DNA from: Aplysia californica
Lineage: Eukaryota
Length of the DNA stretch: 64,000 nt
Direction of reading: 5' to 3'
NCBI RefSeq assembly: GCF_000002075.1
Contig: NW_004797812.1
Span: 231,835-295,834 of the forward strand
This document shows, piece by piece, positions 939 through 6,800 of this stretch. The notes beneath the pieces were generated by a model. It saw only the letters and a list, made by a program, of their open reading frames with translations, searched no databases and was not told the DNA's origin. How positions within the stretch are numbered: position 1 is the stretch's first letter; each line of letters begins with the position of its first letter. The translations under genes were made by a program, and so were the position numbers.

Positions 939-1994
939 CTGAATTTAAGGAACCTATCAACTGGCAATGCAATCCAAATATCAGACACCGCCTCCTTCTT
1001 TCAAACTTCTTTGAAGCACTGGCTCCCAAAACATTCAAAACAGAGGGCAGGTTTCCCTTTCACACCACAGGCATTGTTTAGTATCGTTTTGTATTGAGTT
1101 CACCGCGGTCACAACACACCAAGTCATGTGATCTATTATTATAGCAATGATAGTACACGTCACGTGATATTCCCCCAACCCCCTTGTAACCCCTGTCGTA
1201 AGTAGTAATTTATGTGGAATTTTGCATGTGAATAAAGGTAATTAAACTAATCAAACTATTATATTATTTCAAAAACCATATAATATTCCCTGCTGAGGAT
1301 ATAATATTTTACAAAAAATTGATAACGAAATGAAATGGGTAAACATATGAAATCCCTTTTCCAAGCCAGTCCAACAAAATGAAGAGCATTTAAGTTAATC
1401 AAACTTCCGGAATCCAGTGCAATGTCCGTGGAAAACATCATCTTGAGTGCTATAAACTTGTGAATACCGGTAAAGGTCCTCGATATATGTTCAGTCTATG
1501 AAAAGACAACTACCTAGCTTTTGAAAATATTAGCTGTTTTAGGTTTTTAACTTAATTTCAAGCTTTTTATATGTATGTTTATGCCTGTTTCCCGTTCTAA
1601 TATTGACACTGTTGTGTTTGTTTACACATGGCAACGAAGGATGTGCCCAACATCATTTTTGTAAGCAAAGTTGTTAACCATTTGGGCTTAAATATTTTTG
1701 TATATTCAAATTATGCCCAGCTTATCTAGGAATGTAGCTATGAATTATACCTTTAAAAATCACCTTAGATAGAACCCTTGCTTCACCTCCATGAGCAGAA
1801 ATTGCGAAACAAATTTGGCGCTTTTTCGGTAGTTCCCACCCCGCAATTGTTATTCACGGGGTTTGGCCCCAATAGTAGGGGGGTTTCAGGCAACCCCCCT
1901 GACCTAACAAAAATAGGAAGGGGGGTTTCAGGGGGGCATGCCCCCCTGAATTTTACCACAATTTAATGTTTTGCTTTTGTAAGGTTTGATATCT

Positions 1995-4047
1995 CACGGC
2001 GTCCGAAATTCCGTCTCAGCGATCTCTTAGTTAGTCCGGGCCCCCCGCGGTAGGCCATAAATTAGCGGCAGGTGACCTGCAATTTCACGCGTCAAGTCAG
2101 GGATTGACCGGGGTCAACTCGTGCACAGCGCTGTCCTATCTTGTCCTTATCAGAACGCGTTTCTTTCCCTAATTTCATGAGCCGTAAAATGATGCTCACT
2201 CTACCCCTAGAATCTATTTCTTCACCAATTCCGCTTCGTCTACGTCTTCTTGATATCTTGTGAAAGTTTCAACAGTTTTCATTGATTCGTTTGGGAATAA
2301 TAACAGTTTTAAATTGTGAGTGTTAAGTGATTGGAAGCGCCGATAATAATGTTATCTCTTCAAATTTAATTACAAATCATCCGAGAATGGAACGATGGTC
2401 TTTATTTCTGTTTGCGCGGTGTGATAGCCATCAAATCATATTTTCTAATGATGTGAATTTTGTTTTTCCAGCACTTTGCAGTGACTGGCTATCAGTTAGT
2501 GAATTGTGTTCCTAAGTAAAAATCGTTAAACTGCAATGGGCCAGTCACACATGTGAGAGGCATAGAGTCTCTGAATGGACTTTGTTGGATGTGTTGGTGT
2601 TTAAATTTAACTGTCAAACAAAAAAAAGGTGCAGAAAGCCCCGATTATGTAAGACAATGGCAGGAGATATTCTATTGATTTATGGGATTGATGTGAGGGA
2701 CGAAAATGAACAGTCGTATTCCGCTAACATTTGTGTCAAGTGTTTTACCGCGATTTCAACTATCAAAGGGAGATAGGGTGTTACGTCACGTCAATTTATG
2801 CCACAAAAAAGCAGTTGACACTAGTAGGAACATGTGGTGTGCGTTTGACAATAGCAGAAATATGAATTCCTTCTCCGTTTTGTCGGTACCGCTTAGGTGG
2901 CTGCATACAAAGATCAATTTCAAGCTAACATCGTAAAACACCCCAAACATACCTCCCTCCATCCCCATGTATGCAAGGAACTAACAAACACAATTTGTAC
3001 AGAAACAAGAAAATACTCCGTCGAAACTGCAAAAATTGAGGAGGCAAAAGGAATGGAAGCAATATTCAATCTTCTCAATGAAAGATTTAGCCATGTTCAC
3101 ACTGCAATATCAAATCTCAAACCAGTCGAACGATTTTCACTTCCACAAATCTTCTTAGCAATTGACAATTACATGTCCGCATTCAGACGCTATTTCCCCG
3201 CAAAGTTATCCCAAAGCCACACATATCATAACAACACTGTATTCCACACATACAACAACACATGTTTGCTCTCGGGCTTTTAGGAGAACAGGACACAGAA
3301 AGCAGTCACCAAGTGATCTCAAAACTGGAAGCCAGAGTATGAAGGATCCCAAACCAGATAGACATAATGCGTTTTATTTTTGTGTCGCATCTCCTGCAAA
3401 TAGCTCCCTCATTGCGTGCTGCTGGATATGTTTAGAAAGAAAAATTGTATAAATGTTTACTTTTATTCTGTACATGTTCATTTCGTGAAAAGAAATCGGT
3501 GCTGTATATTGAAGATACGTCAGTATATCATTATTCAGGAGGATACACAATCCATTGGATACAAAAAGTCATGAATGCAGGGAAGCGTTTTGGCTATCAT
3601 GCTCATGACAAGTTCCATGTTCGTGCTGGAAACAAAATTTTGAGTGAGTCAATTTCTAAACACATTTTCCTGTCTTACGTGGCAGTTTTGTAAATATTTA
3701 TCGTTAGGCTTATAAGTTATTAGCCATTCAATATGTGTTTGTTGTTTTGACTAACTATAAATAGACATACATTTTAAGAGCAGCTAACTCAAAAACGTGA
3801 GCAGCCATGGTATTGCTATTTCGTACCAATAAAGAGGTTTAGTTGCTTTCTCTAAAGAACAAACTTGTGTTCACGTATGATATTTTTTTTGTGTGTAAGA
3901 CGATAAAACATGTGTTGAAAAATTCATTTCACCGGCTACCGACGCAGGTAGCGGGAGGGCGGGTTAGTGACCTCTGGGTGACCGGCCCGCCGTGACCCGG
4001 TCACTCCATCGCCGATCCAACTAAAAGAGCGCTGTCTGTACGCCGTG
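1995..4047 (+). mobile_element. Chapaev (CMC superfamily) DNA transposon, internally deleted
   Basis: Termini CACGGCGT...ACGCCGTG; 4-bp TSD ATCT (1991-1994 and 4048-4051); transposase remnants inside. Confidence 0.8.
2536..3425 (+). pseudogene. Degenerate Chapaev transposase (RAG1-like N-terminal Cys motif fused to the C-terminal catalytic-E region)
   Basis: Frameshifted LC(R>W)MC(G>W)...YGIDVRDE...ICVKC...W, then FPRKVIPKPHIS*QHCIPHI...LGLLGEQDTESSH...SHLLQIAPSL. Confidence 0.75.
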
Positions 4048-4475
4048 ATCTTAGCTCACCGCGAATCAAACATATAGATCTAGATCTAGAAGTAAGTCTG
4101 GCTCAAATAAGGGGGGTGGGAACTAGATCTACCGAAAAAGCACCACAAATTTAACATATAAATGAAAAACGAAGTGGCTAGCCGTACCACTAGCCTGAGA
4201 GCTTAAGTACGGCTAGACTGCCAGTCTAGCCGTACTTAGATCTAGGTTTGGCCCTATCAACCCAAATCTGTTGAGCACACAGGGCACACAGGTGACGACA
4301 GGTCTCATTTTAGATCTAGATATAGTAATTATTCAGGTTTATAATACATGCAAGTCAGTAGTAAGGTGCCTTTTGGTTTTGTCTGAAATACAAATTGTAA
4401 CAAGTAGGCTACTTTAGGCATTGCAAACTAAACATTTCATTTACATTTCAGCCATCAATAATAAATACGGCTAGC

Positions 4476-6800
4476 CATGTCAAAGCTGTCAGTGAGCTGA
4501 CCATCATGTATAACCCTGCTACTTGTCCCTTCGTACATGCTCCTGATGAGGTTAACCATCTTCTGTGGGATTCCGTGATGTCTCAGTATCTTCCACAGTG
4601 TTGCTCGGTCTATGCTGTCAAATGCCTTCTCATAGTCTAGAAAGTTGATGATCAACTGGGAGTTCCACTCCAGGGACTGTTCCATTATGATCCTCAGGGT
4701 AGCAATCTGGTCCGTGGTTGACCGATTTTTCCGAAAACCAGCCTGTTCATCCCAAAGTATTGGATCAGTTGCAGACTTGATTGTCTTGATTCTCTCCAGA
4801 ACTATTCTGTTGAAGACCTTTCCTGGTATTGAGAGAAGAGTGATTCCTCGGTAGTTGCTGCAGTTGCTGAGATCCCCCTTTTTAGTTAGTTTCACAAGGT
4901 GTCCTTCTTTCCAATCCTTTGGGAACTTGCTCTCCTTCCAAATCCTGGTAAACAATGGGAGAAGGAGGTCTGTTGTCTCATTGGCATCTGTTTTTAAGGC
5001 CTCAGGTGGAATCTGATCAGGACCGGCCGCTTTACCGTTGTTCAGCTTCCTAATGGCATCCATAATCTCTTGTTTTGATGGGGCATCACAGCAGATTGGT
5101 AGCTTATTTCTTGCTGGCAGGATGTTTGGCGGGTACTTGGTGGTGGTCTGTTCAGGAGACTGTTGAAATGCTCTACCCATCGTCTTGACTGAGCTTCCTT
5201 TCCAAAAATGGTTTTTCCGTTTTGGTCCTTTACTGTTACTTCTGGTTTCCCATATTTTCCAGAAAGAGTCTTTGTAGTCTGGTAAAGGGTTCGCATGTTC
5301 CCTCCTGCTGCTGCCTCCTGTGCCCTCTCTGCCAGCCTGTTCATGAATTCCTCCTTGTCTTTTCTCAGATGTCTCTTTACATCTTTAGTTGTCCTGTACT
5401 GCTCCAATGCGTCCGCTTTTGATCCCCTTGTTCTACTTGCATTTTGTCTCTCTGCTTTCAATTGGTATCTAATGCTAATCAAATCCAATGACTGTTGGCT
5501 AATCCATTCCTTGTGCTCCAATTTCTTCTCACCGAGTATTTCTTGACATGTTGAAGTAAAGACTTCTTTGACCTTGGTCCAGTGCATCTCCTCCTCCATG
5601 TCTTCCTCACCAAGATCCACCAAGTGGGTTGAAATCTGTTCCTCAACTGCAGTTGAAACTCCTGTTTCTTGTGTCCATCTAAAAGACTTACTTGGAACTT
5701 CATTCTTTTGGTTCCTGTTCTGGTTCCATGCCTTTTGAGATGAAGCTTGAGTTTTGCTAACAGCAGATGATGATCCGATCCAACGTCTGCCCCTCTCTGT
5801 ACTTTGACATCTTCCAGTGAATGCCTGAACCTACGAGAGATACAAAAATGATCGATCTGGTTCTCCGTTACTCCATCCGGTGATACCCAAGTAGCCTTGT
5901 GGATCTTGTTATGGGGAAAAACAGAGCCTCCGTTGACAAGACTGTTGAAAGCACAGAGATTTGGGAATCGCTCCCCGTTCTCATTCATTTGTCCCAGGCC
6001 GTGTTGTCCCTTGATTCCCTCATAACCTACGTTGTCCTGCCCAATCTTGGCATTAGCATCTTCCATCATGATGTTGACATCTTTCCTTGGTAGTTTGTCG
6101 ATGACCCCCTGGAGCCGGCTGTAAAAAGCATCCTTGTCATCATCCGAGGCATCGTTTGTTGGGGCATAGATCTGTACTATGTTCATGTTGATGCTCTTAC
6201 TTCTGGCAGTGAAAGAAGCCATGATGATCCTCTCCCCCTGTGGTTCCCATCCTCTAAGTGACTTCTGTGCATACTTACTCAAAATAATTCCAATTCTTTC
6301 CACATGGTGCTTGTCTTCCCTCCCAGCATATAATATTTGTTCCCCGGAGCTGAGCTGCTTCTGTCCAGACTGTATCCAGTGGGTTTCGCTGACTCCTAGT
6401 ATGTGCAGCCTGTATCTTTTCATCTCTTGTGTCACTTGAGAACGCTTTCCTGCTTCATACATGGTGCGAACATTCCACAACGCAGTCCGGAGAGACTTGT
6501 TTGACAAAGAAGGTTTCGGGTCAGAAGAGTCCTTTCAGCTTTGTCCACTGTCTTTCCTTGTTCCAGCTGATGCAGAAGCTCCTCCGTCTCCTGAGATGGA
6601 AAAATTATAAGGCATGTTTGTTCGTGTTTCTATAACTTTTCTTTTTTACTGGGTCGGGAAGTTGGCCCTCTGCAAACTGTCACTTTTCAGGTGGCCAGAC
6701 CTATGCACCTTTAGTTGCCTCTTACGACACAGTATCACGGCAGGTGTATTCTTTACTCCCCCATAGTGAAACTATGGGGCCCCCCACCTGCAGGGGCGAC
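4476..6800 (-). mobile_element. RTE-clade LINE: 5' UTR, APE endonuclease and N-terminal RT, 3'-truncated and frameshifted
   Basis: WNVRTM, GVSETHW, QIYAPT, NQIDHFCI, GSDHHLL; NYRGITLLS, QAGFRKNRST, FLDYEKAFDS. Confidence 0.92.

Follow-up and report, generated by a model that had tools for sequence, protein, structure and literature searches.

Chapaev DNA transposons were reportedly described by Kapitonov and Jurka in Repbase Reports in 2007. Chapaev elements have CAC...GTG termini, a target-site duplication (TSD) of 3-4 bp, an N-terminal Chapa zinc finger and a DDE core marked by the motifs C(2)C, LH and H(4)H (PMC4079192, PMC4411706), and Chapaev3 elements have a 3-bp TWA TSD and an 11-19-bp TIR (PMC3014272). 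Neither a bipartite end with a one-turn offset nor an NBD-like domain was found for Chapaev in the excerpts of the literature covered here (PMC4411706, PMC4079192, PMC3014272, PMC12730594, PMC7204232, 10.64898/2026.08.26.747230 and 10.64898/2026.01.24.700457); Repbase Reports or supplements may record them.

Unequal bipartite ends have been published for several other systems. The V(D)J RSS has a 7+23 and 7+12 layout, which places the nonamers at 31-39 and 20-28 (PMC1131882). Among Transib elements, Transib5, Transib2_AG and subgroup I are asymmetric, with bipartite ends about one turn apart (PMC1131882, PMC9435367). PflRAGL-A shows a 10-bp end asymmetry (10.1101/2023.08.20.553239), AanRAGL has 13-bp and 10-bp blocks with 4/13-bp spacers (PMC9435367), and the ProtoRAG ends are 27/31 (PMC8289069). 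In the Drosophila P element, distances of 9 bp and 21 bp separate the transposase sites from the terminal repeats, a layout that has been likened explicitly to 12/23 (PMC7776569). In RAG itself, the NBD dimer pivots for the 12 and 23 spacers, thus enforcing the rule, and the NBD of BbeRAG1L, which is without GRPR/K, makes a modest contribution only (10.1101/2023.08.20.553239).

The element in the window and its copies

The window, i.e. the whole 64,000-nucleotide stretch of DNA that was analysed, contains an internally deleted Chapaev element of 2,053 bp at 1995-4047, which lies between ATCT duplications and has the following features.

1991..1994, plus strand: left target-site duplication ATCT
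1995..2002, plus strand: left (5', long) terminal 8-mer CACGGCGT
2003..2016, plus strand: left spacer, 14 bp
2017..2032, plus strand: left inner block CAGCGATCTCTTAGTT; the cross-family TTAGTT is 2027-2032, offset 33
2072..2117, no strand: GC-rich left subterminal zone with TGACC/GGTCA half-sites at 2073, 2105 and 2112
2547..2879, plus strand: remnant of the transposase N-terminal Chapa zinc finger, frameshifted (tblastn with the intact family-B protein)
2913..2956, plus strand: approximate junction of the internal deletion of about 1.8 kb relative to L092 (blastn)
2948..3426, plus strand: frameshifted C-terminal part of the transposase, covering the H4H and catalytic-E region
3967..4004, no strand: right subterminal TGACC/GGTCA array (3968, 3979, 3993, 3999), including GTGACC-N-GGTCAC at 3992-4004
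4019..4034, minus strand: right inner block CAGCGCTCTTTTAGTT; TTAGTT offset 24
4035..4039, minus strand: right spacer, 5 bp
4040..4047, minus strand: right (3', short) terminal 8-mer CACGGCGT
4048..4051, plus strand: right target-site duplication ATCT

The initial annotation had described this element as a Chapaev transposon whose two ends share their start and a second block, with unequal spacers and a 4-bp TSD. All of this is borne out in the window. CACGGCGT forms both termini (1995-2002 and 4047-4040), each occurring a single time in the window; the inner blocks CAGCGATCTCTTAGTT (2017-2032) and CAGCGCTCTTTTAGTT (4034-4019) are identical at 14 of 16 positions, and the spacer between terminus and block is 14 bp on the left and 5 bp on the right. 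The subterminal GTGACC/GGTCAC palindromes that it had listed are confirmed only in part: there is one exact GTGACC-N-GGTCAC (3992-4004), but the other is TTGACC-GG-GGTCAA (2104-2117), and the remainder are single TGACC half-sites.

Through the deletion, for which the relative L092 (3,808 bp) served as the reference, the element has lost its NBD-like region together with the two catalytic aspartates. In a blastn comparison, positions 1-919 of the window element correspond to positions 1-911 of L092 (82%) and positions 962-2053 to positions 2746-3808 (89%). An intact autonomous copy of the family to which the window element belongs (family A) was not found, L092, the nearest long relative, being itself frameshifted. 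A Pfam search of the ORF fragments in the window returned nothing informative. The window copy is an ordinary dead, non-autonomous cut-and-paste Chapaev, and its enzyme would be supplied in trans by a full-length relative of family A or A2.

The insertion is flanked by an inverted repeat (window positions 1810-1842 and 4113-4152) that is imperfect, at 77% over 40 bp, and a perfect palindrome with 17-bp arms is found at 4204-4238 in AGATCT-rich surroundings; the element may have inserted within another small repeat. About 400 bp to the right of the element there is a broken non-LTR retrotransposon (4455-6534, minus strand) with endonuclease-like and RVT_1 (E 1.6e-16) frames.

A search of this genome (G000) with the exact pattern, in which any spacer of 2-20 bp was allowed, found 83 ends, 46 with a spacer of 14 bp and 37 with a spacer of 5 bp, and the reversed-pattern control found 0 ends. 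The initial annotation had reasoned that equal spacers in other copies would make the difference a private indel. As all 83 exact ends have either 14 or 5 bp and the control is empty, the unequal spacer is not a private indel. The 40 best places per end in a BLAST search are 93-100% identical. From 30 left and 30 right loci, 20 copies of 2,020-2,272 bp could be paired, of which 19 have a 4-bp TSD and 0 have a 5-bp TSD. Transib or RAGL was rejected as the class of the element on the basis of this 4-bp TSD (5-bp in 0/20) and because there is no RAG2L. The C at 2026 is private to the window copy (the other 29 left ends examined carry T), and hence the block match in family A is usually 15/16.

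Within family A, the left end varies at 6/420 in the spacer versus 5/480 in the blocks. We rejected this variation as evidence of selection. The copies are young, and spacer and blocks have for that reason changed about equally little; by themselves, the 83 matches tell nothing about selection.

End anatomy is conserved across families

Because selection cannot be read from the copies of a single young family, other families were collected with the zinc-finger and core regions as queries. This retrieved 80 stretches and gave 11 families with both ends, A2 being counted separately. The offset, measured from the terminus to the first T of TTAGTT, is (left/right) 33/24 in A and A2, 34/24 in B, D, E, F and H, 34/25 in C, 36/25 in G and I, and 41/24 in J. 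TTAGTT therefore lies 33-36 bp in at the 5' end (41 in J) and 24-25 bp in at the 3' end, with offsets of 19-44 allowed in the core-hit family search. The two ends differ by 9-11 bp in 10 of the 11 families and by 17 bp in J, which is a single-copy element. The end 5' of the transposase is the long one in 11/11 families, none is symmetric (0/11), and polarity is never reversed among strong matches.

The asymmetry of nearly one turn that the initial annotation had compared to RSS architecture thus recurs in 10/11 families here and in metagenome relatives. The 14/5 spacers, whose conservation it had proposed to test, hold for family A but are family-specific, and the conserved quantity is the terminus-to-TTAGTT distance (33-36 versus 24-25). 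The base upstream of TTAGTT is also family-specific and is usually common to both ends of a family, and it is this shared context that produced the 16-bp block of the initial annotation.

The TSD is exact in A, A2, B, C, D, F, G and H and matches at 3/4 positions in the I and J representatives; the flanks of family E do not match as a TSD. Between 10 families (A2 left out), identity is 75-78% in the terminal 8-mers, 36-37% in the spacers and 29% beyond the box. At the protein level, identity in the core is 41-72% between the G000 families. TTAGTT is present in 20/20 representative ends, which were located partly through that motif. The end search favoured TTAGTT-like boxes and would mostly miss families without such a box; at the core-hit loci L151-L170 an end pair was recovered in 7/20 and none in 13/20. 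The end anatomy, which is conserved across families, is a matter of observation, as are the constant polarity, the 4-bp TSD and the derivation by deletion.

Two short forms were seen in the same collection. Family D consists of non-autonomous elements of 1.55-1.6 kb (e.g. L137 and L165) and, with 265 exact left-end matches, is the most abundant Chapaev family seen. The family-C element L144 (G000:C7:1588895-1589166) is a miniature of 272 bp that has both ends (34/25) and a flank match of the TATC type; it may be a remnant left by deletion, or else some 130 bp at each end can be enough.

A metagenome scan yielded 35 loci, which were searched for ends with a matrix trained on the G000 ends, the box being free at 15-45 and a score of at least 18 counting as strong. 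Eight strong inward ends were found in 6 of the 35 loci, with offsets of 34, 34, 35 and 34 on the left and 25, 24, 24 and 24 on the right; the outward control gave 1 match, at offset 42. Both ends are present in L175 (34/24). Three weaker matches were divided: L188 fits, but L182 (right 21) and L200 (left 24) do not. L187, at 29% protein identity, has a different shared block (11/11) at 25 versus 15. In L172, the right end can be placed in more than one way, as there is an alternative near-symmetric block pair at 32/33. The other 29 of the 35 metagenome loci have no strong end, many contigs ending too early, and the metagenome end pairs show no matching TSD. A scan of viral contigs found no relative. 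AA(A/G)ATGGCG boxes, which we take to resemble YY1 sites, occur near the candidate ends of L187 (62 and 5197, offset by 10 bp) and L172 (145 and 4362).

The transposase and its predicted fold

The protein was analysed in family B, whose copy L096 (L096:2068-6172; 4,105 bp, TSD ATTC) has an intact ORF of 940 codons, the transposase being encoded at L096:2790-5600. No second ORF of at least 150 aa lies wholly inside L096, and there is no RAG2L partner gene. Long open family-B ORFs are found at three loci (L096, L095 and G000:C1039:202789; 940, 941 and 906 codons) and are 98-100% identical in the core. Because L096 and L095 share 99.3% DNA identity, family B appears to be recently or still active. 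No RNA sequencing run is listed as carrying family B, and in two poly(A) RNA runs the reads that fell on the 4.1-kb element were few and patchy (52 and 51), too little for a firm statement on expression.

The catalytic motifs are D480, D551, CLWC at 570 (C(2)C), LH at about 638, HILEQH at 859 (H(4)H) and E881/E885. The N-terminus carries the Chapa-type His/Cys motifs CRICG, FICHKC and CSVC, and similar zinc-finger His/Cys motifs are listed in PMC1131882. Pfam reports DUF1280 (E 5e-15) and, short of the cut-off, RAG1_imp_bd at E 0.014 and zf-AD at E 0.005; a RING domain was not seen in family B. Among homologues that carry a name, the closest come from gastropods, and these names are uninformative or only DUF1280. 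Judged by the published hallmarks, the Chapaev assignment of the initial annotation holds, with the motifs, the CAC...GTG termini and the 4-bp TSD all in place.

Searches of PDB sequences with the single protein and with a 76-sequence profile gave no RAG/Transib match, so that the RAG1 link is visible by fold only. An AlphaFold2 model of residues ~255-928 (76 sequences, pLDDT 95) aligns best with RAG1 (5zdz_A), over 512 residues with a VIA Z of 25.8 and an rmsd of 4.8, covering RAG1 391-1001 and running through the RAG1 NBD; Foldseek matches the model to 4wwx with an E of 2.8e-15. The VIA Z is 23.4 for BbRAGL, 23.3 for HzTransib and 11.9 for P transposase.

When the 88-residue pre-core piece was folded alone (pLDDT 84) and compared with 48,161 chains, RAG1 NBD 3gnb came out on top at a Z of 4.6 (rmsd 3.8, 62 residues aligned to 389-456), tied with unrelated helical proteins (Z 4.2-3.9); by Foldseek, the E of this piece is at least 3. 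The NBD-like segment is basic and conserved (T-x-G, xPRK, R-x7-R-x4-G). At the position of the GRPR/K hook, at the NBD start, it has xPRK/xARK, with the Arg invariant in 22/22 aligned rows and no GR. A two-copy prediction of the NBD-like piece scored 0.00; it was made without an alignment, the piece's own fold was uncertain in it, and it carries no weight in either direction. The models predict a RAG1-like core fold and, more weakly, NBD-like helices.

Proposed pairing of long and short ends

By analogy with RAG, the transposase would read TTAGTT via its predicted RAG1-like NBD and would prefer one long and one short end, in a manner similar to 12/23, as the initial annotation had suggested for end discrimination; we put the probability of this reading at about 0.55. 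If RAG structures are a guide, the terminal CACRG would be engaged by the catalytic core, an NBD-like module, dimeric and flexibly linked, would grip both TTAGTT boxes, and the tilt of this dimer would accommodate one short and one long spacer. Since an NBD-like module is predicted in the same place and the box at nearly the same two distances, a RAG geometry is the simplest inference. More tentatively, this may be a true long/short rule, exerted via a homologue of the NBD that needs no RAG2 and acts with another inner motif, in which case the geometry would predate the split between Chapaev and Transib/RAG1.

The main rival, which we regard as less likely, is helical phasing without pairing. 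Here each end would need TTAGTT to face the correct side of the helix, both spacings would function, like-with-like ends would pair well, and the 10-bp difference, an ancestral one, would have survived solely because indels of any other size are lethal. Offsets that cluster at 24-25 and 33-36 are what phasing alone predicts, the missing GRPR/K hook fits it as well, and RAGL-B elements have been proposed to be fairly insensitive to asymmetry (PMC7204232). The behaviour of individual copies bears on both readings. Inward-facing end pairs within 15 kb are long plus short in 115 of 115 cases (exact patterns, among the matches listed, with some family-C rows and one duplicate row left out), which is weak evidence because long plus short is expected from copying alone. 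More informative are spacer indels: they occur in 6/100 family-D left ends among the matches listed, one of them probably a chance match, yet among the exact-pattern matches listed no spacer-indel copy has spread to more than one independent site, which speaks for a pairing preference.

One copy with a TSD is short/short, as phasing would allow. This family-C insertion (G000:C3:342615, 24/25), which is outside the 115 pairs because of a mismatch in its right terminus, has lost exactly one 10-bp repeat from the left end, and its TCGC TSD is intact. The simplest reading is slippage after insertion; the copy may also have moved while already short/short. The short-left family-C end has a second copy, a local duplication with about 440 bp of flank in common, and for this reason we rejected the short-left ends as a mobile subfamily. 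The long spacer of families B and C (L096:2068, L100:2123) carries a 10-11-bp tandem repeat (CGAAA.. twice), which suggests that a long end may arise from, or collapse to, a short end by slippage. Collapse to short/short is therefore easy and has happened at least once, yet 0/11 families are symmetric, and the polarity is never reversed among strong matches; both facts speak against phasing without pairing.

The subterminal regions hold a further conserved sequence. In positions 42-200 of 21 ends from 11 elements (one end was dropped for N), GGTCA/TGACC occurs 50 times versus 6.5 expected from dinucleotide shuffles, a count inflated by the tandem repeat of one end, and it is present in 18/21 ends. 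The short end mostly has an inverted GGTCA pair and direct repeats. The palindromes of the initial annotation are therefore part of a clade-wide subterminal array; that the transposase binds it is our guess. RGGTCA-like direct repeats, 2-5 bp apart, are seen at about 45-100 in the short ends of families A-I and L175, and presumably resemble nuclear-receptor response elements or half-sites. This resemblance and the excess of GGTCA are what one would expect if a host factor bound the inner box and the GGTCA arrays, or if these were promoter or chromatin elements, the offset reflecting that factor. We consider this improbable, as the box is at both ends, at a fixed distance from the cut site and close to the RSS nonamer positions, and as an NBD-like segment that is basic and conserved persists in the transposase. 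Very improbable, and already disfavoured, is neutral inheritance, in which an old indel made the ends unequal and was then merely copied: the equal invariance of spacer and blocks in the young family-A copies agrees with it, but a comparison between families shows a spacer that is almost randomised in sequence and yet varies in length by no more than 1-3 bp, TTAGTT is in 20/20 representative ends (located partly through the motif), and spacer indels are frequent in dead copies. Both of these explanations fit less well than phasing without pairing.

The preferred reading, a long/short pairing preference, is directly testable with one protein and four end combinations, because the family-B ORFs are intact at three loci. 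If it is true, the near-identical intact copies of family B would be a single-protein system for dissecting the rule. The origin of the 12/23 rule has so far been argued from Transib and RAG-like elements only, and a more distant branch with a one-turn asymmetry and an NBD-like module would push the design deeper, or would indicate that it arose twice on the same fold.

With described Chapaev elements, the families reported here share the CAC...GTG termini, the 4-bp TSD, the Chapa zinc finger and the DDE motifs. With V(D)J RSSs and RAG1 they share a CAC terminus and an inner A/T-rich box at both ends, and a RAG1-like core and, more weakly, NBD-like helices are predicted; in the 34/24 families, a 9-mer ending in TTAGTT occupies 31-39 and 21-29, compared to 31-39 and 20-28 for the nonamers. 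However, the box here is YTTAGTT, T-rich on the CAC strand, whereas the RSS nonamer is A-rich, the TSD is 4 bp instead of 5, there is no RAG2 and no GRPR/K, and sequence identity is 13-16%. The 4/13 spacers of AanRAGL closely parallel the 5/14 spacers of the window element. Transib and RAGL differ in their 5-bp TSD and inner motifs, and RAGL also in having RAG2L; in addition, the 5' end is short in Transib5-type elements, according to the legend of Fig. 4 in PMC1131882, but long here. The P element belongs to a separate superfamily, with a THAP domain, an 8-bp TSD and a weaker structural match (Z 11.9). Chapaev would be a distant sister group of RAG1. In summary, a long/short end design with a difference of one turn is apparently undescribed in Chapaev, whereas in Transib, RAG-like and P elements it has already been published.
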